A stretch of DNA of 28,566 nt from a virus. This document shows positions 1,573 through 16,184 of this stretch, in pieces. The stretch lies in the IMG/VR virus record IMGVR_UViG_3300009431_000983, one strand, 5' to 3'. A program made the translations under genes and the position numbers. Numbering within the stretch: position 1 is the first letter of the stretch; every line of letters starts with the position of its first letter. The notes beneath the pieces were generated by a model. The model did no database searches and had not been told where the DNA came from. It saw nothing but the letters and a program-made list of their open reading frames with translations.

Positions 1573-2178
1573 TCACACCTCCCCTTTGCAGAAAATCGTA
1601 GTCGTCCGAAAACGATGATTGGTGGACCTGGCGATCCCGATGAAACCTCCAAGCTGCCATCCGTCTTTTTTCCTGAACGGAGGATAGACGCAGTCTAACC
1701 ACACCAAGTAACCACCAGCTCTCGTAACCGCGGCGCACTCAATAACCACCGGCTTCCTCTTAACCATCGGAAAGTTGTACTTCTTGGCGTCCTCTTTACT
1801 GTACGGAGGGTCCGCAATAACCAAATCGAACTGGCCTGGCTCGAAAAACTCGCTCAACTGATGAGCATCGCCCTGAACGTCCACCTCTCCCTGGATGTCA
1901 AACCGAGTATAGTTCCCTTCAGGTAGGGATCCAGAAAAAAGATGTAAAATGTTCTCCGCATCGGGAAACATGGACATGACTCTCTTGAGGTAATTCGGCG
2001 GATACGCCCCGTAGAGTCTGCTCTTGTTCCTGAAATCGTTGCCTAAACACCAGTACCCAGTGAGCCACTCTCTACCGTTGTTCTCCGTAACCACCAGATG
2101 GGAAGCGGGCCACTTCGCGAAAGCAGCGTTGTAAAGCCGGGCTCGGTGTTCAAGCTTCCAGTGAGAATTCATCGGCAC
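1573..2178 (-). CDS. N6-adenine DNA methyltransferase (gamma-like order: FxGxG then DPPY)
   Basis: 201 aa. HLFSGSLPEG (motif I-like) is followed about 40 aa later by LVIADPPYSKED (motif IV DPPY), a classic amino-methyltransferase signature. Overlaps the downstream methyltransferase by 29 nt. Confidence 0.75.
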   Translation of the reverse strand: MPMNSHWKLEHRARLYNAAFAKWPASHLVVTENNGREWLTGYWCLGNDFRNKSRLYGAYPPNYLKRVMSMFPDAENILHLFSGSLPEGNYTRFDIQGEVDVQGDAHQLSEFFEPGQFDLVIADPPYSKEDAKKYNFPMVKRKPVVIECAAVTRAGGYLVWLDCVYPPFRKKDGWQLGGFIGIARSTNHRFRTTTIFCKGEV

Positions 2179-3355
2179 TTTCCACCTTCACTTCGGTTAA
2201 GAGACCTAACTCCTCGTTCACTCGTTCCTCGGCCTGACTTGCATAATCGTCCCCGATCTCCACCAGAACCGCTTCCCTGCCGATCTCCGCGGCAACTTTA
2301 CCAACCGTCCCAGACCCACCGAACATGTCCAGAACTCTACAGGGCGCTGCCTCTCCCTCAACTTTACAATTACAGTCCTGAACCCAGCCCACGGGATGGT
2401 CCTCTTCCAGGACTCTAAAAAACGGTCTACCACACCCTCCACAACACCCGCCGTCGCTGGTACCTAACTTCAGGCACCTGCGCACCAAATTCGGAGGAAA
2501 CACCGCGTAGTGTTGCCCAGGATAGTTCTGGAGTCCGATTCTCCACACAGATCGAATGTTTTTACCCCTCTTTGCGAATTGACTGGCGTCGGACCGGTCC
2601 TCACTTCCAGCGGCCCAACCTCTTCCCTGTGAACCTGCACGTACTTTGGCCCCTCCCGAGAGCGGATATTCTATTCTCTTCCTGGAAGCCTCACTGTAGG
2701 GCTCTCTGTTGCCTTCCATGTCATAGAAATACGAATCCTCTCCCTTCGTCAGAAGATAGAGGTACTCGTGTATCCGATTGGGTCTGCCGGACCCATTCTT
2801 TCTCTTCAGTATCTTACCCTTCCAACACTCCCCGCACGCTCCGTCCTCGCAAGACTCGCACTTACCAACCACCTTGTAATGAGCATCGTGGACGCTCTCT
2901 GGGAAGACGTTGGGCTTTTCCCAGACACAGTCACATTTGTGAGTCCAGCCCTCCTTCATCATCTCCTGAACCACCCGAGAAGGCACACACAGCAAGTTGC
3001 CTTTACGGTAATCCCCATGAGTCTTCTTGCAAAAGGAATCTCCGATGTTTAACCAGAAAATACCGTCGGACCTCAAAACACGAAAAGTCTCTCTGAAAAT
3101 CTCCACCAGGTGTTCGATGTAGAGGTCTGAAGTAGGCTCCCACCCCAACTGCCCTATCCAGGCACCGCAATCAGCACAAGTACCGTCATCCACCCAGGTA
3201 TGCTCACACCCCGCCTCTCCCCCATACGCCAGATCCGGAGCTTCGTACTTTCGAAGCTGGTAGTACGGAGGAGACGTTATCACACAATGAAAGTACTCAT
3301 CGGGAATACGCCCTAAAACGGACAGAGCGTCCCCCCTAACGATGCTAATGGACAT
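2150..3355 (-). CDS. DNA methyltransferase (beta-class N6A/N4C) with Cys-rich zinc-finger-like inserts
   Basis: 401 aa. N-terminus GDALSVLGRIPDEYFHCVITSPPYYQLRKY (motif IV SPPY). C-terminus VLDMFGGSGTVGKVAAEIGREAVLVEIGDDY (motif I FGGSGT), i.e. beta-class circular permutation. Inserts CEHTWVDDGTCADCGAW and CESCEDGACGECWKG are paralogous to the 1..1183 protein. Confidence 0.85.
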   Translation of the reverse strand: MSISIVRGDALSVLGRIPDEYFHCVITSPPYYQLRKYEAPDLAYGGEAGCEHTWVDDGTCADCGAWIGQLGWEPTSDLYIEHLVEIFRETFRVLRSDGIFWLNIGDSFCKKTHGDYRKGNLLCVPSRVVQEMMKEGWTHKCDCVWEKPNVFPESVHDAHYKVVGKCESCEDGACGECWKGKILKRKNGSGRPNRIHEYLYLLTKGEDSYFYDMEGNREPYSEASRKRIEYPLSGGAKVRAGSQGRGWAAGSEDRSDASQFAKRGKNIRSVWRIGLQNYPGQHYAVFPPNLVRRCLKLGTSDGGCCGGCGRPFFRVLEEDHPVGWVQDCNCKVEGEAAPCRVLDMFGGSGTVGKVAAEIGREAVLVEIGDDYASQAEERVNEELGLLTEVKVESADEFSLEA

Positions 3356-3911: not shown

Positions 3912-3943
3912 GGTCACCGTTTCCGTCCCTGGAAACGGTGACC
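3912..3943 (-). terminator. perfect 13-bp GC-rich hairpin (GGTCACCGTTTCC-gtccct-GGAAACGGTGACC) 13 nt after the stop of 3957..4199
   Basis: Seen directly. On the minus strand it is followed by CUCUUUAGGACAUUUUGG, a weak/interrupted U tract. Candidate intrinsic terminator or mRNA-stabilising stem-loop. Confidence 0.4.
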
Positions 3944-3956
3944 AGACCCAACAGCA

Positions 3957-4199
3957 CTAGTCGTAGTCCCCGTCGTCTAGAAGATCCACCTCTCTGGCAA
4001 TACTCGATTCATTCAAGTAGCGCTCCAAGTGCGCTTTGAGATTGGGGTGCAAATCCGTCATCCCAGACAATCTGACTAAAAACTGCAAGCCTTCATCAGT
4101 ACAACCCACGAACCCAATCGTTCTTCCCGCATTCTTTCCCGTCTTGAACTTGTATCCGGAAGCCTCCTTGAATGTCATCTCGACGCTTGCTTCCATCAA
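3957..4199 (-). CDS. hypothetical small protein (80 aa)
   Basis: Start ATG overlaps the stop of the upstream NDT-like gene in an ATGA arrangement (translational coupling). Ends 13 nt before a perfect 13-bp hairpin. Confidence 0.55.
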   Translation of the reverse strand: MMEASVEMTFKEASGYKFKTGKNAGRTIGFVGCTDEGLQFLVRLSGMTDLHPNLKAHLERYLNESSIAREVDLLDDGDYD

Positions 4200-4759
4200 T
4201 CCTCCTCCAAAGCGTCCTCAGAAAAAAGACTAGGACAAGATCTGTATTCGCTAAGAAGAATACCCAACGCTTCCAGGGGATCTTCTACCAGAGGTCCTCC
4301 GTCGTATTCCTGATGCAGAGGATTCAAAATGCGAGTAGTCCCATAAGTATAGGCCAGCCACATGTCGGGAAAATAGCACGGCCCACTTACCCACACCTGC
4401 TTACCTAAGGCCCTGGCGGTAGCCACCTCCGTAAGAGTCCCGTACACGTCCTGGCTGGAAATCCAGGCGAAAGTCACATCTGCCATCCTCACCGCTTCCC
4501 GAGATAGACGCCCCAGAATTACCCTCGCCCTGAAACGGTCCTGCCTGGCGATCCCGTCACAAATCTCCAAATATGGTCCGGTGTAGTCTAATCCGTCACC
4601 TAAACCGTCAGTGATTATTCGCCACGCTCTAGGTACTGTGTCCAACCTGTGATGTGAAGTCGCATATCCCTCAGGGAACTCACTAATCACCGGATCTCGC
4701 CAGCGCCCCGTAGGACCACTCACCTTACCCGCCAGGTAGAACGCTATCCTCTCGCTCAC
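4196..4759 (-). CDS. nucleoside 2-deoxyribosyltransferase / DNPH1(Rcl)-like N-glycosidase superfamily protein
   Basis: 187 aa. N-terminal RIAFYLAGKV (IYLAG-type motif) and C-terminal DVTFAWISSQDVYGTLTEVATARALGKQVWV (D..G T.E.G.A.A.GKPV-like motif) match the NDT/DNPH1 flavodoxin-like fold family as I remember it. Start overlaps the end of the PurA-family gene (4756..4759). Confidence 0.6.
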   Translation of the reverse strand: MSERIAFYLAGKVSGPTGRWRDPVISEFPEGYATSHHRLDTVPRAWRIITDGLGDGLDYTGPYLEICDGIARQDRFRARVILGRLSREAVRMADVTFAWISSQDVYGTLTEVATARALGKQVWVSGPCYFPDMWLAYTYGTTRILNPLHQEYDGGPLVEDPLEALGILLSEYRSCPSLFSEDALEED

Positions 4760-5889
4760 TTTTCTTTGAACCCCAAAAAGTCCCAGACATGGTTCTGCTG
4801 AGGCCCAGTACCCACCAGAATCACCGGAAGTCTCGTTTCCTCCCGCACCTGTCCAATGAACTCCCGAACCTTGGGAGGTAGCTCAGAAAACTCGTCTCCA
4901 CATGTGCCGAAACAGCTATAGTCAAGATAGTTAGCGAAGTTCAGTACTAGCTTGGTCACACCGTTCAGCCGACACGCTCTCTTGATCTGCTCCATGGAGA
5001 AGGTTGCCACCCGCCGCACCCTCTTAGTGACAGTCGTCAACTCCATCAAGTCGTAGTCCTCCGGGTATCCTGCTTCCTCCTTAATCTGCTCCCAGGTGAT
5101 CTCCTCTTGGTCCGGATACCAGTCCCCGGAATAGCCAACTTGCCTGCCGCCCTCAACCACGTTACCCACCCGTATCGGATAGGGCCTGAATACACCATAC
5201 ACGTCACCCAGGTCTCTGGGTGAAATGCCCGTATCCGTCAATTCCCTGGAGACGGTACACTCACGAGAAGTGCAAAACGGATAGGACTGACCGTGTAGCA
5301 TCCCCAAAGAAAAACCCTGGCTTCCTTCAGCCAGAAACATCCCCTGCTCCACAGCTTCCTGGATTACGTTGAACCACTCCCCCTCAGGCACAACCATAGA
5401 CGACAATTCCGATACATCCCTTGCCAGAACTACTCCCTCTCCCCGCATCATCCTCTCTACCTGAACGGCCCCCGACCCCTGCATGGTGGACGCCAAATGC
5501 TTAGTACTTCCCTCATTACCCACCTTTCCACTTTCCACCTCGGCATGCTTTTCGGTTACAACCATCGCCCTCGGATGAATGTGCACCGAAGAACTGTCAA
5601 GAGAACACTCATTTATCTCCTGTAGAAGTCTCTCAACGAAAAATCCCGCCCCAGGACCCACGTAAACTTCGACATCTTGTCCCTGATGCCTGAGAAAAGC
5701 ACTTACCGGAATCAACTTGGACACGAATTTACGGCCGTCCGCCAGTACTATAGTGTGTCCGGCATTTGGCAGATTATTTGTCCCCGCCCCCGTTACGTTG
5801 AACCTTTCCGCCAGATATCCAGCGATCAGACCCTTCCCACAACTACCGAACTGCAAATCCACCACAACGTTGAAACAACCACGAAGCAT
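4756..5889 (-). CDS. adenylosuccinate synthetase family enzyme (PurA/PurZ-like), divergent P-loop
   Basis: 377 aa. NVVVDLQFGSCGKGLIAGYL aligns with the PurA P-loop VVVGtQWGDEGKGKivD. NNLPNAGHTIV aligns with GGhNAGHTvv (conserved His). QGFSLGMLHGQSYPFCTS aligns with the QGtlLDidhGTYPfVTSS region of PurA. The SD GGAAGGGAGAA sits 8 nt upstream of the ATG. Confidence 0.75.
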   Translation of the reverse strand: MLRGCFNVVVDLQFGSCGKGLIAGYLAERFNVTGAGTNNLPNAGHTIVLADGRKFVSKLIPVSAFLRHQGQDVEVYVGPGAGFFVERLLQEINECSLDSSSVHIHPRAMVVTEKHAEVESGKVGNEGSTKHLASTMQGSGAVQVERMMRGEGVVLARDVSELSSMVVPEGEWFNVIQEAVEQGMFLAEGSQGFSLGMLHGQSYPFCTSRECTVSRELTDTGISPRDLGDVYGVFRPYPIRVGNVVEGGRQVGYSGDWYPDQEEITWEQIKEEAGYPEDYDLMELTTVTKRVRRVATFSMEQIKRACRLNGVTKLVLNFANYLDYSCFGTCGDEFSELPPKVREFIGQVREETRLPVILVGTGPQQNHVWDFLGFKEK

Positions 5890-5968
5890 GGAAACATTCT
5901 CCCTTCCAAGAAAGAGCGGTCAAAACTCCCATTTTTTCTACTTTGATGAAATCAGGCGGTTGTTCCCG

Positions 5969-8764
5969 TCAACCGCTGCACCCGTCACCCGCTCCGCAGT
6001 TCAAACACTTGTGACAGGTCCCATTACGCACCATCATGAATCCGCACCCTGGGCAAAGTGGCGCGTCCTCCGTCATCCTGAAAGCGTGGTCCTTGGTTTC
6101 AGCCTGTCTGATGGACGTTTCCTGTTCTTCTCTCTCTTGATTGTGCACCTCTTCCTCGTGGCCGTCGCCACTGACCTCAGGTATGAAGCTCTCCGAAGAG
6201 TCCAAGTCCTCAAGAAACTTGATACCAAGCCAACGGAACACATAGTCTACCACCGACTTGGCCAACCGTATATCCGGATTCTTAGTGTGGCCCGCCGGCT
6301 CGAAACGCATGTAACTCAGCTTGTCCACCAGGGCCTCAAGAGGAACACCATACTGTAGAGCGATAGAAGAAACAATGGCAATCGTGTCCATCAGACCAGA
6401 AATCGCACTCCCCTGCTTCGCCATCTTCAGGAAGATTTCCCCCGGCCTCCCATCATCGTACTTGCCGACCGTAACGAACCCTTCGAAACCTCCAATGTCG
6501 AAACGATGCGTGAGGGACTGCCTCTCCCCCGGAAGGTGCTCCCGCTCTGGACGAACCGCCGCCTTTTCTTCCTTACTCTTTGAAGTGCCGGAATTCAGAG
6601 GCTGCGCCTTCTTGCAGTTGTCCCGGTAGATAGAAATGGACTTGAGTCCCATCTTCCAAGCCTGAACGTACAAATCAAGGATCTCAGGTCCGGTCGTTTC
6701 CTCCGGAACGTTTACCGTCTTGGAAATTGCCCCTGAGAGAAATGGCTGAACCCCAGCCATCATTCTGAGGTGCCCGCTGTGATGGATCGACCGAGTACCG
6801 CTTAAAGGAACAAGAGCGCAGTCGAACACGGACAAGTCATCTTCTCTAAGACCTGGCGCTCCTTCGATGGTTTCTTTGGACTCCAGGTGGTCAAGAATGC
6901 CTGAAACCTCCCCGTCCCTGTAGCCCAGCACCACCAGTCCGTCCCGAACAGACTGGTTGACAATGCTCATTTCCCCTCCGCCTGAAAGCTTCTTCGTCTT
7001 TACTAGGGCGAGATCCGGCTCAATCCCTGTGGTATCGCAGTCCATCATGAAAGCGATAGTTCCTGTAGGCGCTAAGCACGTTACCTGGGCATTCCTGAAT
7101 CCGAAATGTGCACCATCCTTCAAAACATCTGCCCAAACATCCGAAGCCTTGTTACCTAGCTCCGTCTCAACTCCCCTGAAACCGTGACTTGCTGCCTGCG
7201 CGGCATGCTCGTGCATCACCGACATGAAAGACTGTTCGTTGTTGCGATATCCAGGGAAGACCCCCTTTCTCGAAGCCAACGAAGAAGAGGTCCTGTACGC
7301 TTCGCCCGTCATGACCGAAGTCAGAGCCGCAGCATAGTTGCGGCCTAAGTCACTGTCATAGGCGACACCCTTAGACATCAAAAACGCACCCAGATTGGCG
7401 TAGCCCAGACCAAGCGGCCTAAAATCGTTACTGTTCCTGGAGATCTTCGTTGTCGGATAGCTCGCCTTGCTCACAAGAATGTCCATGGCCGTGATTATCA
7501 CCCTGACCGTGTGACAGAACAGGGAAACGTCAAAAGACCCATCCTCACAAGTGAAACTCTTCAGGTTGAGAGATGCCAGATTACAGGCGCTATCGTCCAG
7601 GAACATGTACTCACTGCACGGATTGGAGGCGTTGACTCTGCCTGAATCCCTGCAGGTGTGCCAGTGATTGACGGTCGTATCGAACTGTAAGCCGGGATCG
7701 CCACAAGCGTAAGTTGACCTGGCGATCGCCTCAAGGATCTTCTTGGCGGGAATTGTGTCTACTGGCCTGCCCGTCACCACCTCGGTAGTTTGCCAGTCCT
7801 CACCCTTCTCAACTGCTGTCATGAAGGCATCCGGAACTCTCACTGAAAAGTTCGAATTCTGGAAAAAGACTGAACTATACGCCTCTCCGTTCAAAGAGTT
7901 GTCATATCCCGCCTCTACCAAAACTTGGGCCTTACGCTCCTCTCTGGTCTTGGCCTCAATGAAGTCCAGGATGTCCGGATGATCCACATTCAAAATCTGC
8001 ATTTTCGCGGCTCTGCGCGTCTTCCCTCCAGACTTGATGACACTAGCGAAAGCATCGTACCCCCGCATGAAAGCCAAAGGTCCCGAAGCAATTCCTCCAG
8101 CGCTCAAGTGCTCCTTGGAAGACCGGATAACGCTCAAGTTGGTGCCTGTACCAGAACCATACTTGAAAAGCATGCCCTCTGTCTTGGATAGCCCCAATAT
8201 GGAGTCCATGCGGTCTTCAACCGAGTTGATGAAACAAGCAGAGCACTGAGGACGATTCTCAATCCCTACGTTGAACCATACCGGACTGTTAAAGCAACCC
8301 ACCTGAAACAACAAGATGCTGGTCAATTCGTCCCTGAAGGTTTCAGCCTGCTCCTCTGTCTCAAAATAGTCCTGCTCCTCTCCCCACCTAGTGATCGTAG
8401 TCACCACCCTCCCAATCAACTGCTTAACACTGTATTCCCTACCAGGACTGCCAACTGCCCCCCGAAAGTACTTAGAGGCGACAACGTTGGTGGCGAGTTG
8501 AGACCAGGTCTTTGGTACTTCAACCCCCTCTTGTTCAAAAACGACTGTCCCGTCATCCCCGTTGATTACGGCCTTTCTGGTCTCCCACTCCACACGCTCG
8601 TATGGGTCCTTTCCTTTTACCGACCACTGCCTTTCGAGAGTAAGTACGCCCTTACCGTTTCCAGAAGACGGCCTAACGTCTCCTGCGGACTGCGTGGACG
8701 TTACTCCCTCTGTAATGCTTGCCCGTCCTCGCTCTACAGTAGCTACTGCTTGTCCCTCTGCCAT
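5969..8764 (-). CDS. nrdJ: ribonucleotide reductase, class II-like (adenosylcobalamin-type NrdJ) large protein with C-terminal zinc ribbon
   Basis: About 930 aa. ASKYFRG, NSPVWFNVG, CSACFI, GSGTGTNLS, NPCSEYMFLDDSACNLASLNL (RNR active-site Cys/Asn/Cys/Glu region) and C-terminal CPGCGF..CHKCLNCG. Start trimmed to the ATG at 8764 (MAEGQ), preceded by GGGAGGAGG. The longer frame starts with TTG at 8791. Confidence 0.85.
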   Translation of the reverse strand: MAEGQAVATVERGRASITEGVTSTQSAGDVRPSSGNGKGVLTLERQWSVKGKDPYERVEWETRKAVINGDDGTVVFEQEGVEVPKTWSQLATNVVASKYFRGAVGSPGREYSVKQLIGRVVTTITRWGEEQDYFETEEQAETFRDELTSILLFQVGCFNSPVWFNVGIENRPQCSACFINSVEDRMDSILGLSKTEGMLFKYGSGTGTNLSVIRSSKEHLSAGGIASGPLAFMRGYDAFASVIKSGGKTRRAAKMQILNVDHPDILDFIEAKTREERKAQVLVEAGYDNSLNGEAYSSVFFQNSNFSVRVPDAFMTAVEKGEDWQTTEVVTGRPVDTIPAKKILEAIARSTYACGDPGLQFDTTVNHWHTCRDSGRVNASNPCSEYMFLDDSACNLASLNLKSFTCEDGSFDVSLFCHTVRVIITAMDILVSKASYPTTKISRNSNDFRPLGLGYANLGAFLMSKGVAYDSDLGRNYAAALTSVMTGEAYRTSSSLASRKGVFPGYRNNEQSFMSVMHEHAAQAASHGFRGVETELGNKASDVWADVLKDGAHFGFRNAQVTCLAPTGTIAFMMDCDTTGIEPDLALVKTKKLSGGGEMSIVNQSVRDGLVVLGYRDGEVSGILDHLESKETIEGAPGLREDDLSVFDCALVPLSGTRSIHHSGHLRMMAGVQPFLSGAISKTVNVPEETTGPEILDLYVQAWKMGLKSISIYRDNCKKAQPLNSGTSKSKEEKAAVRPEREHLPGERQSLTHRFDIGGFEGFVTVGKYDDGRPGEIFLKMAKQGSAISGLMDTIAIVSSIALQYGVPLEALVDKLSYMRFEPAGHTKNPDIRLAKSVVDYVFRWLGIKFLEDLDSSESFIPEVSGDGHEEEVHNQEREEQETSIRQAETKDHAFRMTEDAPLCPGCGFMMVRNGTCHKCLNCGAGDGCSG

Positions 8765-8830
8765 GCTAACACTCCTCCTCCCTGTACCCAATGTTTACCT
8801 TCTCAACCTGAACTATCTGACGCTTCGCTG

Positions 8831-9454
8831 CTAGCCGAATAGAGCAGCGTCCACCACCTGCGAAGATACTGGACGATCGGACTTTCCCTGGGAAAGCCAC
8901 TCTTTGAACTGACCCCAGGTCAAAGCTGTAACGCTTCCTAGTCCTTTCCACCCAGGCTCGTAGTTACTTAAATATCCTTCTCTTGCCGCCTTCTCATTGG
9001 TGAACCCAACCATCACCTTGTGCTCATCGAACTCGCCATCCCAATTCTGGTCAACAACAAAAACGACTTCTGATTCCGGATTGTCTCCTATAAACACATC
9101 GATGTGGTCTCCATCAGCATCACTCTCTGTCAAACGGATATACCCGTAATGATGCTTCATCTTGATGGACCACTCCACGCCGTCCGAACTCTTTCCGCTG
9201 CGGGTTTGCCCCTTCCCTGTCTCAATCGTAATAGGGAGGCCCCGAACCGTAACTTTGCCTTTACGGTAATTCCCCGTCTCTTTCTGCTTTTCGGTGGGAT
9301 TTGGCTCGCACTTCTTGGCCGCCTCGTCAATCAGCTTCTTCAGGTCACCGTTCACCTGGGCAACCACTATCGACAGAAGCTGACTTGCCGACTTTAATCT
9401 TCCGTCTGCACCTATCACCACTGAAATCCCTATACCCGTTGTACCGTGCTTCAC
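8831..9454 (-). CDS. divergent family-I inorganic pyrophosphatase-like protein
   Basis: KHHYGYIRLTESDADGDHIDVFIGD resembles the PPase core NYGYI..T.S.DGDP.DVLV. Weaker matches elsewhere in the protein. Start uncertain: GTG at 9454 has no SD, while GTG GTG at about 9416 is preceded by AGGGA. Confidence 0.45.
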   Translation of the reverse strand: MKHGTTGIGISVVIGADGRLKSASQLLSIVVAQVNGDLKKLIDEAAKKCEPNPTEKQKETGNYRKGKVTVRGLPITIETGKGQTRSGKSSDGVEWSIKMKHHYGYIRLTESDADGDHIDVFIGDNPESEVVFVVDQNWDGEFDEHKVMVGFTNEKAAREGYLSNYEPGWKGLGSVTALTWGQFKEWLSQGKSDRPVSSQVVDAALFG

Positions 9455-12256: not shown

Positions 12257-13753
12257 TCAGGTTACAGTCAACTCACAGACAGAACTCAGTTGAACACCAT
12301 GTTCCTCAAAAAATCCAGGCTCTTCCAAAGCTAGAGACGCCACGCCTACCGCTAATCTGCACAGGGCTTCGTGGTACTCGTCATCCAAGTGATTCCCGCA
12401 AAACTCGTGTCCCAACTCGTGTATCAAAATCCTCAGATGCCTATCAGATATCTCATCGAAAAACGCTCTCCCCAAGCAACTCACGTTGTAGTCCAGAGTC
12501 CGGTTGCCATAAAGGGCCTCGAACTTTCTGGACTTCCCCCGCAGCCTGATCATCCGTACTTCGATTTCTATGTCCGCCACCCTCCTGGCAAGCTCCTTTG
12601 AAAACTCCGCCACCCTCCGCATTCCTCTCGTCCAGCCCTCCTCTGAAATCACCAGGTCTGGATCCTCCCCACCAGAACCCGGCCTTGGCGTAGGGAAAAC
12701 CCTCCCTGAAGGCTGCATGTTCTCGCTACGCCTGACATTCTTCCACTCACCACCACTTAAAGATCCGCCTGTCACAACGTTGAATCCGTTTGCGTAGGCC
12801 CGATAGTTGGCCTCCTTGTCCGTCGGATCCTGAATAACTCGGTCCCTGCCGAACCGATGAGTCAACATTGTGTCCAGTGCCTCATCCGAACAACGCTCAT
12901 CGCTCGTAGCCTCCCTTACCCAGGAATCGCTGGCGGCTTCCCTCTCGATTTCACCGTGCATTTCGTTCAACACGGCCACCCGCAAAGTCTTCAAGTAGTG
13001 AGGAGTGACGTTGTTCCTCTCCATGTTCAGGGGTACCTTTTGCTGAACATTGACATGCCACTCATCTCCTGTGGCCACCACCGGTAGCCCCATTTCGAAA
13101 ATCTGAGACTTCTCCCCATCACGAACCCGGAATAGCTCCACCGTGGTTTTGCGTATGCTCCGCCGCAAAACCCCATCCTCTCTGGCAATCAACGTCGCCA
13201 GACTCTCCTCGAAAGAGTGTACTGCCTCTGGCCTGCTGACTACTTCCCCGTTGAAAACGGTTACTACGTCTTCCGGGGGAATCAACGCCTCAACGTATCT
13301 CTCAAACTCTCCTACTTCCTCATCCGTAAGCTCCAGAACCCCGCAGAATACGGACCCCACTTGAGTCCCGGAGTCACTGGTTTTTCTCCGACCTCCCCGC
13401 TGGAAAGACACAGTACCCTTGGTGGTCTCGATTCTCGCGGACCGGCACAAGGATAGAATGAACTTCTCGCCTACATTGAACCGACCTCGCTTACCCGGAT
13501 CCTTCAGCTTCGTAGATTCTGCGAACAAAGTGTAAGCATGGGAAATGTCCCAAAATCCGGCGGGATCATCATCCACTACTCGGTATTCGTACATACCGCT
13601 ACCCCCGCCTCTCTTTCTCTCCAGAGAAATCTCCACCCTGGAGACATTCTGATCCCAGGCGTTCTGTATGGGTTCAGCGAGAATACAGGACTTCCCGCGC
13701 CTCTCGATGAGTTTACGCAGTCCTTCCTGGTCTACTTCGAACCAACTCGGCAT
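12257..13753 (-). CDS. GHKL-type (Bergerat fold) ATPase domain fused to HExxH zinc-metallopeptidase-like C-terminal domain
   Basis: 498 aa. N-terminal AEPIQNAWDQNVSRVEISL (E..NA.D N-box) and VVDDDPAGF (D.G.G-like G1 box). C-terminal RILIHELGHEFCGNHLDDEYHEAL (HExxH plus a downstream E). Confidence 0.6.
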   Translation of the reverse strand: MPSWFEVDQEGLRKLIERRGKSCILAEPIQNAWDQNVSRVEISLERKRGGGSGMYEYRVVDDDPAGFWDISHAYTLFAESTKLKDPGKRGRFNVGEKFILSLCRSARIETTKGTVSFQRGGRRKTSDSGTQVGSVFCGVLELTDEEVGEFERYVEALIPPEDVVTVFNGEVVSRPEAVHSFEESLATLIAREDGVLRRSIRKTTVELFRVRDGEKSQIFEMGLPVVATGDEWHVNVQQKVPLNMERNNVTPHYLKTLRVAVLNEMHGEIEREAASDSWVREATSDERCSDEALDTMLTHRFGRDRVIQDPTDKEANYRAYANGFNVVTGGSLSGGEWKNVRRSENMQPSGRVFPTPRPGSGGEDPDLVISEEGWTRGMRRVAEFSKELARRVADIEIEVRMIRLRGKSRKFEALYGNRTLDYNVSCLGRAFFDEISDRHLRILIHELGHEFCGNHLDDEYHEALCRLAVGVASLALEEPGFFEEHGVQLSSVCELTVT

Positions 13754-13762
13754 GTTCGTTTC

Positions 13763-14593
13763 CTACATGTTCCAACAACCGTGAAGACACCCCTTATCAA
13801 TGTGGTCTGCGGCCCCGGACCGAATCAGGTCCCGAACCTCCTCGATCGAAAGCTCCTTACGAAACCGGTGCTGAATCTTCTGCTCCACTTCCACATGCTG
13901 GTCCAAAAGTTCCTCGTTGTGCACACCAGCGATGAGCAGGGCATCCTTGGGAGCGAAAATGCAGAAGCAGCACGACAACCGAGGCATTCCCACGTCATAC
14001 GCCCAGTGGTGATTCGTCTCGATGGAGTGAATCCGATCCCAAACCTGCTTCTCCGTCCAGTCGTGGACCGGAAGCCAGTCATCAACGTGCCTGGTGGAAG
14101 AACTCGCCCGCTTGTTGTGGGTGAAGGGCTTCCTTTTCGCACGACTCGGAGACTCCTCCGCTCGCAACCCCATGCAGTTGAGAATCCGGCAAGGACCCCC
14201 GCCGTTCTCCTTCTGCAACCGCACGTAAATCTTGCGAATCTGATCGCGCTTGTGGTCCGAAGTGCAAAACCTGGCGCAGGACGAGGGCCACATCTGCCTC
14301 TTCTCCACGTGCTCCAGGATATCTCCCAGGACCTCCCCCTTCTGATTCACCGTGCCCTTACGGCTCACGATTTCGTATCGAAACCCATAATGGGCGCAGT
14401 GCTCTTTGAACAGGTCCACCGTCCCTGGCCAGTCCATCCGGCCAAGGTCGGCGTGAACCATGATGATCCGGTCTTCGATCCCCAGTTCCTTACACAGGTG
14501 GTAGACCTTATCAGTCGTTACCTGGGAGTCCTTACCGGCAGAACTGCTGATACAGATGAAATCGTAGCTCGCTAAATCCGGTGTTTCGACCAT
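13763..14593 (-). CDS. PAPS reductase / DndC-like PP-loop ATP pyrophosphatase family protein
   Basis: 276 aa. FICISSSAGKDSQV (PP-loop SGGxDS). VHADLGRMDWPGTVDLFKEHCAHYGF (like CysH DTG..FPET). C-terminal RLSCCFCIF Cys cluster. A promoter module with SD AGGGGACAGAGA is immediately upstream. Confidence 0.7.
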   Translation of the reverse strand: MVETPDLASYDFICISSSAGKDSQVTTDKVYHLCKELGIEDRIIMVHADLGRMDWPGTVDLFKEHCAHYGFRYEIVSRKGTVNQKGEVLGDILEHVEKRQMWPSSCARFCTSDHKRDQIRKIYVRLQKENGGGPCRILNCMGLRAEESPSRAKRKPFTHNKRASSSTRHVDDWLPVHDWTEKQVWDRIHSIETNHHWAYDVGMPRLSCCFCIFAPKDALLIAGVHNEELLDQHVEVEQKIQHRFRKELSIEEVRDLIRSGAADHIDKGCLHGCWNM

Positions 14594-14748: not shown

Positions 14749-16119
14749 TTATGCTGCGGTCATCCAAAGCCTTTCGTGAAACCGGTAGCTGAACCCGTTG
14801 GACTTGAGCCAACTCTTGACTCTCCGAATCAGTCCTGAGTCATACTCCTTCAGGGCCTTGCCTTCGGGGAGGCTAACGGCCAGCGGCTTGCCCTCGGCAT
14901 CCACCTTGACGGCGAAGGTCAAGACCTCCTCACTAGCATTCCCTCCCGAATTGCTCTCCAGCATGGACGTAGTCACGCTCTCGATATCGCCAGAGAGGAC
15001 CGAGTCCCAGTTACCGTCGAAACTCTTCTTGGCCTTGTCCTTGACCAGACCAGGAGCAGCGACCAGCATGTCCTCTATCGTCGGATAAACGTCCTCCTGA
15101 CGCTCAGCCAGGTAGATTCGGTTGCTGCGGGCCACTTCAGTGACCGGCTGTCCGCTCTCGGCGGCCATTTCTGCCAGGCGGGCCTCAATCTCTTCCCGGT
15201 CACCCCGGTGAAGACCCTCGACCTTCCGGTCGGCCCGTTGCTTCTTCCAGTAAATTCTCCGGACTCGGTAGACGGCCCATTCCTCTTCAGCGAGAACCTC
15301 TTCCAGGTTGCCCACGGCGTCCTCATTACCGTCATCCCGGACGCAGGTCTCGACGCTCTTTTTCGGATAAAGAGTCATGCGAGGGTTCAAAGCGGTGGAC
15401 ACCCGCTCCAGGAGCATGGCCTCAGCGGCGGCTTCCGGATGGTCCTGATAGCGGTCGAGAATCTCACCCTTGCCGTTGGAGAAAGGGCAGAAGGAGCAGC
15501 AACTCTTCTTCCAGGCGACTCCCAGAACTTCCTCGATGTACTGCTCGCACTTCTCACGACCCCACCCCCAGTCAACCAGGGGGTAACTTACGTTCCGGTA
15601 GTCCGTCGCGAAAGACTTGTCCCTCTCGACCCGCTTAAGCTCATCTGCGTTGAAGCCGATGATGTGCTTGTATTCCGTGCCAGGAAAGCTGTCGTGAATC
15701 CAGGCGTCCAGCACCACACCCTTGAACTTGATGGAGCACCGACGATTCCCAACCGTAAACTGAGGAACCGTTCCCGCCGAAGTGAGTTCATCACTCAGCG
15801 TGTACTGACCTTCCAGAAGAACCTCCGTTGGCTCATCAGTGTCGGACAGCACCACGTAGACCTCCCCCTCCTTGAGACTGGGGCCTTTGCGGGCCACCTG
15901 GACATAGCGAATGCCATGCTCCCGGAGAAGGGGCAAGATATGCTCTTCGAGCAACTTCTTGGTGTCTGGGAACTCGTTGCCGACTTGCGAGGTGAGAACG
16001 ACCAGGTCTTCAAGCTCGAAATCCCTGGAAGCCGGCTCAAGGATCCAACGCAGGAGGATGGCCGTTGAGTCAACGCCCATCCCGTAAGAAAGGATAATCG
16101 GAGTTTTGCTGTCTGTCAT
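14749..16119 (-). CDS. PAPS reductase / DndC-like PP-loop ATP pyrophosphatase family protein (long form)
   Basis: Start trimmed to the second ATG (16119). The first ATG lies inside the promoter -10 element GTGTATGTATATAAAAG. TPIILSYGMGVDSTAIL (PP-loop). KSCCSFCPF Cys motif. Long acidic C-terminal extension ending ...KSWLKSNGFSYRFHERLWMTAA. Confidence 0.7.
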   Translation of the reverse strand: MTDSKTPIILSYGMGVDSTAILLRWILEPASRDFELEDLVVLTSQVGNEFPDTKKLLEEHILPLLREHGIRYVQVARKGPSLKEGEVYVVLSDTDEPTEVLLEGQYTLSDELTSAGTVPQFTVGNRRCSIKFKGVVLDAWIHDSFPGTEYKHIIGFNADELKRVERDKSFATDYRNVSYPLVDWGWGREKCEQYIEEVLGVAWKKSCCSFCPFSNGKGEILDRYQDHPEAAAEAMLLERVSTALNPRMTLYPKKSVETCVRDDGNEDAVGNLEEVLAEEEWAVYRVRRIYWKKQRADRKVEGLHRGDREEIEARLAEMAAESGQPVTEVARSNRIYLAERQEDVYPTIEDMLVAAPGLVKDKAKKSFDGNWDSVLSGDIESVTTSMLESNSGGNASEEVLTFAVKVDAEGKPLAVSLPEGKALKEYDSGLIRRVKSWLKSNGFSYRFHERLWMTAA

Positions 16120-16148
16120 CTCTGTCCCCTGTAGGTAGGTTTTCCCTA

Positions 16149-16184
16149 CTTTTATATACACCGCTCAGGGACAGTTTTTCAATC
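16149..16184 (-). promoter_or_regulatory. promoter module P3 (TTGAAA - N17 - GTGTATATAAAAGTAGGGAAAACCTACCTACAGGGGACAGAG ATGAC)
   Basis: Near-identical to P1 across about 50 nt including the leader. Upstream of gene 14749..16119. Confidence 0.6.

Follow-up and report, generated by a model that had tools for sequence, protein, structure and literature searches.

Phages that carry 2-aminoadenine (Z) in place of adenine need both to synthesize the corresponding triphosphate, dZTP, and to keep adenine out of their DNA, for which the published solutions are two: DatZ in phages with PurZ, and DutZ together with DmtZ in actinophages with PurZ0. The virus record IMGVR_UViG_3300009431_000983 of IMG/VR, considered here over its whole length of 28,566 nucleotides (the window), contains a purZ gene directly followed by an open reading frame (ORF) for a protein of 187 amino acids (aa), and the question that this locus raises is what such a protein does there. 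From its sequence and its modelled structure, it is predicted to be a highly divergent, catalytically competent member of the superfamily of nucleoside 2-deoxyribosyltransferases (NDTs) and DNPH1. The full reading favoured here, namely that it is a deoxyadenosine monophosphate (dAMP) N-glycosidase which excludes adenine, has been recruited independently and is transcribed together with purZ and coupled to it in translation, has in our estimate about an even chance of being right.

The NDT-like gene and its coupling to purZ

The gene upstream had been annotated in a first pass as a member of the PurA family and possibly PurZ-like, and both proposals hold. The PurA-family assignment is confirmed by a match to PF00709, and the PurZ character by the motif QFGSCGKG, in which Asp13 is replaced by Ser as is the signature of PurZ, and by the best PDB match, which is PurZ of phiVC8 (E 1e-53, with S-2L PurZ at 3e-37 among the nearest solved structures). 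Ser16 is invariant across the PurZ subclade to which the window belongs, the match to phrog_1211 has an E-value of 2.8e-58, and the top NCBIfam model is the PurZ model NF038379, with 226.7 bits, under its cut-off of 300 bits. Among cultured phages, the closest homologs are found in the PurZ group of Vibrio, Burkholderia and Alteromonas phages (37–42% identity), and actinophage PurZ0 is farther away (~30%, E ~1e-14). Judged by these sequence features, the gene is a genuine purZ, and the phage probably replaces adenine by Z in its DNA.

The ORF downstream of purZ is present exactly where the first-pass annotation had placed it, on the minus strand, which had been left unstated (Table 1). Its start, claimed to be an ATG, is instead a GTG at position 4759, the sole in-frame start codon upstream of the first β-strand, and the claimed overlap with the stop codon of the PurA-like gene stands in the form of a 4-nucleotide GTGA (...AAG TGA / GTG AGC...). 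At its other end, where an ATGA joint to a further small ORF had been described, the arrangement is TGATG, with ATG and stop codon sharing one base, or TTGA if translation begins at a TTG; a GGAGGA Shine-Dalgarno sequence lies just 5′ of this start. Such overlaps uphold the proposed coupling and co-expression of the genes, but they do not argue for a complex, so that the stoichiometric functional unit once deduced from them does not follow.

Table 1. Positions of the features discussed, in window coordinates unless a contig or locus is named.
Feature	Position	Strand	Remarks
Methyltransferase genes: at least three for DNA (N6/N4 type) and one S-adenosylmethionine methyltransferase	1-1100 (partial), 1573-2178, 2150-3355, 24092-24814	(-)	First one whole in L001:13496-15040
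Hairpin, terminator-like	3913..3944	(-)	13 bp, perfect; directly 3′ of small ORF; ΔG -30.8 kcal/mol, z -3.9
Small ORF	3957..4196/4199	(-)	79/80 aa; function unassigned; start overlaps stop of NDT-like gene
Divergent NDT-superfamily N-glycosidase-fold protein (type 1)	4196..4759	(-)	187 aa; GTG start
PurZ (2-aminoadenylosuccinate synthetase)	4756..5889	(-)	377 aa; stop overlaps start of NDT-like gene (GTGA)
Sigma-70-like promoter match	5896..5923	(-)	TTGACC, 16-nucleotide spacer, GAGAAT; just upstream of purZ; weak
Class II (B12-dependent) ribonucleotide reductase	5969..8791	(-)	79 nucleotides upstream of purZ; supplies deoxynucleotides
Inorganic pyrophosphatase (PF18823)	8831..9454	(-)	Stand-alone
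Protein with weak GHKL ATPase match	12257-13753	(-)	498 aa
PAPS-reductase-like proteins (phrog_424)	13763-14593, 14749-16161	(-)	Adjoin the 498-aa protein
Major-vault-protein-like protein	19502-22345	(-)	947 aa
ARPP-1/ARPP-2 domain protein	L001:18485-19465
Stretch without called gene	L001:15642-16947		1.3 kb
NDT-like domain fused to nuclease	L124:8001-8849, L125:8001-8978		Examples
PurZ with in-frame insertions	L019:5674-7938, L024:2809-6504

The hairpin that follows the small ORF was found by folding and had been missed by a simple terminator scan because its U-tract is poor, and promoter-like matches are not more numerous in the region than in shuffled sequence. Taken together, the overlapping starts and stops, the 3′ hairpin and the weak promoter match make purZ, the NDT-like gene and the small ORF look like one unit closed by the hairpin. 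The small ORF has no match in Pfam, PHROG, NCBIfam, PDB or PADLOC. It was considered as a DUF6378/MazZ-like partner, DUF6378 being the gene usually coupled directly after purZ in the subclade, and comparison shows that it is not DUF6378.

That the NDT-like gene is no chance ORF is clear from its 457 relatives, from its recovery, with 100% identity, in four metagenome contigs that are independent of one another, and from the array in which it lies, since all genes of this 28.5-kb contig (~53% GC) are on the minus strand. One other contig, L001, shares 14.7 kb with the window at 100% identity and reaches 4.8 kb past the window start.

Fold, catalytic residues and predicted activity

Taken on its own, the 187-aa protein has no direct match in Pfam (even at E ≤ 1), PHROGs, NCBIfam, PDB sequences or PADLOC. 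A word-indexed homolog search recovered only the protein itself, a tblastn search with it and with the most typical member of its family against 50,697 phage records gave nothing, and so did a pattern scan of IMG/VR; the family alignment is too variable for building search patterns. Relatives were found by phmmer among 1.84 billion cluster representatives, where 457 reach E ≤ 1e-3, the best being only 38% identical, and the look-ups of their NCBI clusters attached no names to them.

It is through these relatives that the superfamily placement proposed in the first pass is borne out: the protein itself matches neither PF05014 nor PF15891, the two profiles suggested for a check, whereas 85 of its 87 best relatives match the former and 80 the latter (E ≤ 0.01). 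A family profile built from 37 stand-alone members also finds structures of the superfamily, namely the CMP N-glycosidase BcmB (E 1.9e-4), YtoQ, several NDTs, MilB and BlsM, besides two complement C1r entries matched by chance; Rossmann-like folds of an unrelated kind score no higher than 8.8. The protein has the flavodoxin-like α/β fold of NDT and Rcl. Its AlphaFold2 model reaches a predicted local distance difference test (pLDDT) score of 83.2 and a predicted template modelling (pTM) score of 0.83, and the Foldseek comparison, weaker yet consistent, points to DNPH1 as a likely structural neighbour (probability 1.0, TM 0.62).

The two motifs on which the assignment had first been based are roughly as described, the N-terminal one reading AFYLAGK (residues 6–12) and not IYLAG, and the second one GTLTEVATARALGKQVWV (residues 107–124). 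Tyr8, on strand 1, and Glu111, the Glu of GTxxE, are invariant in the 87 relatives, and Glu111 aligns with the nucleophilic Glu of BcmB (GT.IE.G) and of NDTs. All of the invariant or near-invariant residues of the family are kept in the window protein (Y8, G11, K12, W20, R21, Y59, G61, P62, D94, G107, T108, E111, A115 and W134). Most relatives additionally possess a Cys/His-rich loop, CDHGCxHGxxxHG, as well as Cys86 and Cys105, which are together suggestive of a metal site; all of these are gone in the window protein (residues 67–70, 86 and 105), and among the other relatives that lack the loop, Cys105 tends to be missing as well, and Cys86 in some cases.

As for the substrate, the position six residues before the nucleophile is occupied by Asp in nucleoside NDTs, which hold the 5′-OH with Asn, and by Ser in Rcl. 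The residue found there in the window protein is Val105, and this, in combination with the conserved basic residues K12 and R21 near the glycine loop, suggests a 5′-phosphorylated substrate. The same features, Val105 in place of Asp and a conserved Lys and Arg close to the loop, speak against a nucleoside transferase like NDT-M2 (see below), a reading that is rather unlikely also because the diphosphohydrolase of the phage would yield dAMP, whereas DatZ, the enzyme that would yield dA, is not recognisable.

This diphosphohydrolase is encoded at L001:15160-15642, ~5 kb beyond, as a 160-aa protein matching PF18909 (the N-terminal domain of dATP/dGTP diphosphohydrolases, formerly DUF5664; E 2e-14), and together with the pyrophosphatase of the window it allows a pathway to be proposed. 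The DUF5664-type enzyme, whose activity we infer from characterised homologs, would convert dATP into dAMP and dGTP into dGMP, and the pyrophosphate thereby released would be removed by the pyrophosphatase, for which the role of a sink is plausible. PurZ, going by its homology, would start the synthesis of dZMP from dGMP. The NDT-fold enzyme would meanwhile cut the N-glycosidic bond of dAMP by forming a covalent intermediate between Glu111 and the deoxyribosyl group while Tyr8 holds the Glu in position, and the products would be adenine and deoxyribose 5-phosphate, so that dAMP could not be rephosphorylated to dATP; free Z base may also serve it as an acceptor of the sugar phosphate. Such a role would parallel that of DmtZ in PurZ0 actinophages and that of DatZ in phages of the phiVC8/S-2L type, with an enzyme whose independent recruitment drew on another branch of the superfamily. 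The first-pass annotation had itself suggested that dAMP is depleted or that bases are swapped on deoxynucleotides, an idea that agrees with later experiments on DmtZ and NDT-M2 and fits the gene content.

PurZ loci and the family outside Z phages

Gene content around purZ was compared in 26 IMG/VR loci, 80 metagenome loci and five Pfam-annotated neighbourhoods by local hidden Markov model (HMM) searches, with counts restricted to loci with adequate flanks. In the window's PurZ subclade (40–62% identity), an NDT-superfamily gene is present in 26 of the 42 loci and a DatZ-like gene in none; among ten loci with a canonical, phiVC8/Bm1-like PurZ, the corresponding numbers are zero and seven. Fisher tests give p-values of 7e-4 for NDT and 9e-7 for DatZ, which overstate the significance, as the loci are not phylogenetically independent. 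A hidden DatZ was also sought, and an HMM derived from ten loci detected none anywhere in the window or L001, nor in any subclade locus.

Each of the 26 NDT-superfamily genes is on the same strand as purZ, and by sequence three types can be told apart. Type 1, immediately downstream of purZ, is that of the window only; type 2 (seven loci, ~205–225 aa) is located 2.2–4 kb upstream of purZ, and type 3 (18 loci, ~125–150 aa) 0.6–3.8 kb upstream. Type 2 accompanies those PurZ proteins that are most closely related to the window's (58–62% identity), and its homology with the family of the window protein extends along the entire length (139 columns, hhalign probability 96.6%); both type 2 and type 3 weakly match PF15891 and PF05014. 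This distribution suggests a third arrangement besides the two published ones, in which a PurZ subclade without DatZ has at least three types of non-orthologous NDT-fold enzymes in its purZ cluster. The subclade is a large one, with 2234 PurZ-like proteins at E ≤ 1e-40, mostly uncultured, and many of them come from T4-like or jumbo contigs, whose length reaches ~397 kb.

A few further observations concern these loci. Their usual neighbourhood (L013-L123) consists of an RNase_T-like exonuclease gene, purZ and DUF6378, often followed by a glutamine-synthetase-like gene and a NUDIX gene, and Mom-like proteins adjoin in several cases. In L019, PurZ contains an in-frame insert of ~370 aa before Cys206 of CTSRECT, which starts with Cys and ends in ...VEN|C, and the PurZ of L024 has two large in-frame insertions; by their sequence, these insertions look like inteins.

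What weighs against a dAMP N-glycosidase is, in the first place, the company that the family keeps elsewhere. Its members are mostly found in the replication modules of prophages and satellites, in contexts such as integrase-AlpA-X-PrimPol-helicase, RecT-helicase-X-RusA or helicase-X (X being the family member), and none of the contexts examined holds PurZ. Out of 150 relatives, 70 are stand-alone, 46 have an N-terminal extension, 33 a C-terminal one and one is extended at both ends; in the best relatives, the N-terminal partners match T5orf172/MUG113 (GIY-YIG-like) or HNH domains and the C-terminal ones DUF559/Vsr-like domains. Fusions of the NDT-like domain with a nuclease occur directly after primase or helicase genes (for instance in L124 and L125), and no paper mentioning an NDT-like domain fused to such nucleases was found in the literature searched. 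Since the family is mostly free of PurZ and often fused to nucleases, its ancestral activity would not be Z-specific and may concern DNA.

From the same evidence, one might see in the window protein a family-generic function in the replication modules of mobile elements that is unrelated to Z, such as an N-glycosidase acting with nucleases on DNA or on another nucleotide, with its adjacency to purZ merely reflecting the clustering of genes for nucleotide and DNA metabolism. The neighbours of the relatives in PurZ-free prophages and satellites (primase/helicase, RecT, RusA and HNH genes) and the nuclease domains in the extended relatives (80 of 150) speak for it. However, the gene overlaps the purZ stop and occupies the canonical mazZ/datZ slot, the subclade shows an enrichment of NDT-fold genes around purZ, and the loss of the Cys/His-rich loop and of two conserved cysteines fits a changed function, so that this explanation is unlikely, while retaining an appreciable share of the probability. 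A bolder variant is that of an NDT-fold adenine-DNA glycosylase which, like the nuclease-fused relatives, would act on DNA and depurinate the adenine-containing DNA of the host, to which a phage with Z-DNA would be immune. This we consider most improbable; were it true, it would be the first DNA glycosylase with an NDT fold and a Z-based weapon for the distinction of self from non-self.

Other points against the dAMP N-glycosidase lie in the protein and the locus themselves. The third position of the catalytic triad, Asp72 in the NDT of L. leichmannii and Asn77 in DmtZ, corresponds to Ser86 of the window protein and to a Cys of the family, according to a register taken from HMMER alignments to BcmB and to Leishmania PDT, eight residues before D94 and sequence-based only. 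A triad residue that is neither Asp nor Asn, in a gene so tightly coupled to purZ, might also indicate a non-catalytic, nucleotide-binding PurZ subunit with a sensory or regulatory function, as SLOG/NDT-like folds also serve as ligand sensors, or else an enzyme acting on another nucleotide, such as AMP or ATP; the invariance of Glu and Tyr across the 87 relatives argues for catalysis, and such a subunit or enzyme is quite improbable. Moreover, the window is the only instance of a type 1 gene beside purZ, so that the exact gene pair lacks an independent replicate, and the contig is partial: the 33 kb available from the window and L001 yielded no gene for HD/DatZ, MazG, Dut or a DNA polymerase, and the rest of the genome could hold a datZ gene.

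Orthology with DmtZ was also considered and rejected, the kinship going no further than the superfamily. The DmtZ of Gordonia phage Frizzle (a DmtZ-DutZ fusion from Arthrobacter phage Preamble was also retrieved) gave no BLASTP match with the window protein, the family profile aligns to DmtZ with an hhalign probability of only 9.6%, and the DmtZ of Gordonia phage Ghobes is a weak Foldseek match (E 0.16), like any other viral NDT. Finally, the substrate specificity of the window protein is entirely deduced, and so are the direction of its reaction (hydrolysis or transfer) and whatever physical contact it might make with PurZ.

Should the dAMP N-glycosidase activity be real, it would extend the picture of "functional convergence" in Z-DNA biosynthesis, provide synthetic biology with very small new dAMP-specific enzymes or deoxyribose-5-phosphate transferases, and offer a first way into the function of a family that is so far unannotated, comprises at least 457 clusters and occurs in the replication modules of prophages and satellites.

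Neighbouring genes and known systems

Elsewhere in the window and on L001, several genes deserve mention. The PF18823 domain, stand-alone in the pyrophosphatase of the window, is embedded in PHROGs in giant virion, DarB-like and "endolysin" proteins of 700–4600 aa. The 947-aa protein has a Shoulder domain of the major vault protein (PF11978, 1.6e-23) and Vault_3 repeats, unusual for a phage-like contig, and no match in PHROG or PADLOC. The two proteins resembling 3′-phosphoadenosine-5′-phosphosulfate (PAPS) reductases may form, with the adjoining GHKL-like protein, a second DNA-modification module or a sulfur-related one. The first of the several methyltransferase genes runs off the window start; on L001, an ARPP-1/ARPP-2 domain protein is encoded just past the DUF5664-like gene, and a 1.3-kb stretch is without a called gene.

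Of the systems already described, DmtZ offers the closest parallel in function. The DmtZ enzymes of Ghobes, a Gordonia phage, and Wayne, an Arthrobacter phage, both PurZ0 actinophages, are dAMP-specific hydrolases which also transfer deoxyribose 5-phosphate to Z and act downstream of DutZ/DUF5664, which turn dATP into dAMP; DmtZ is reported to be monophyletic, confined to PurZ0 actinophages and usually fused to DutZ (Poubanne et al., NAR 2026, PMC12884076). The window protein shares with it the NDT-superfamily fold, the catalytic Tyr and Glu, the position of its gene near a PurZ-family gene in a (here probable) Z phage and the presence of a diphosphohydrolase that turns, in this phage by prediction, dATP into dAMP, as well as, in the proposal made here, the destruction of dAMP and possibly the making of dZMP. 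It differs in that its PurZ stands on the phiVC8-like (non-PurZ0) side, in that the window has no Dut, in the direct coupling of its gene to purZ and in having Ser86 at the position of Asn77.

A second comparison concerns the PF05014 NDTs, which are enriched in dZ contigs from aquatic metagenomes, where they are reported not to be co-localised with PurZ and to co-occur with DatZ, and of which NDT-M2 prefers dA (Yang et al., bioRxiv 10.1101/2025.10.22.683976). In contrast, the window protein has no PF05014 match and is encoded right next to purZ, with no DatZ in the vicinity, a distinction drawn from descriptions and not from sequences; the type 3 proteins, with their weak PF05014 match, may be of the NDT-M2 kind. 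From the (d)NMP N-glycosidases DNPH1/Rcl, MilB, BcmB and BlsM, the protein is set apart by an identity below 20%, the lack of the GSIRGG(R) phosphate loop, an insertion of ~45 residues after strand 1 and the replacement of the catalytic Asp. YtoQ (PDB 8OF6), matched at E 0.004 only, is a bacterial housekeeping-type protein with no function reported in the literature searched.

DatZ, the HD-domain dATP triphosphohydrolase of S-2L- and phiVC8-type phages, is unrelated to the NDT-like protein in both fold and chemistry. Yet it occupies the same slot downstream of purZ, as in Burkholderia phage Bm1, the closest cultured PurZ phage, where a small hypothetical gene and datZ come right after purZ, and it would serve the same end, the exclusion of adenine.
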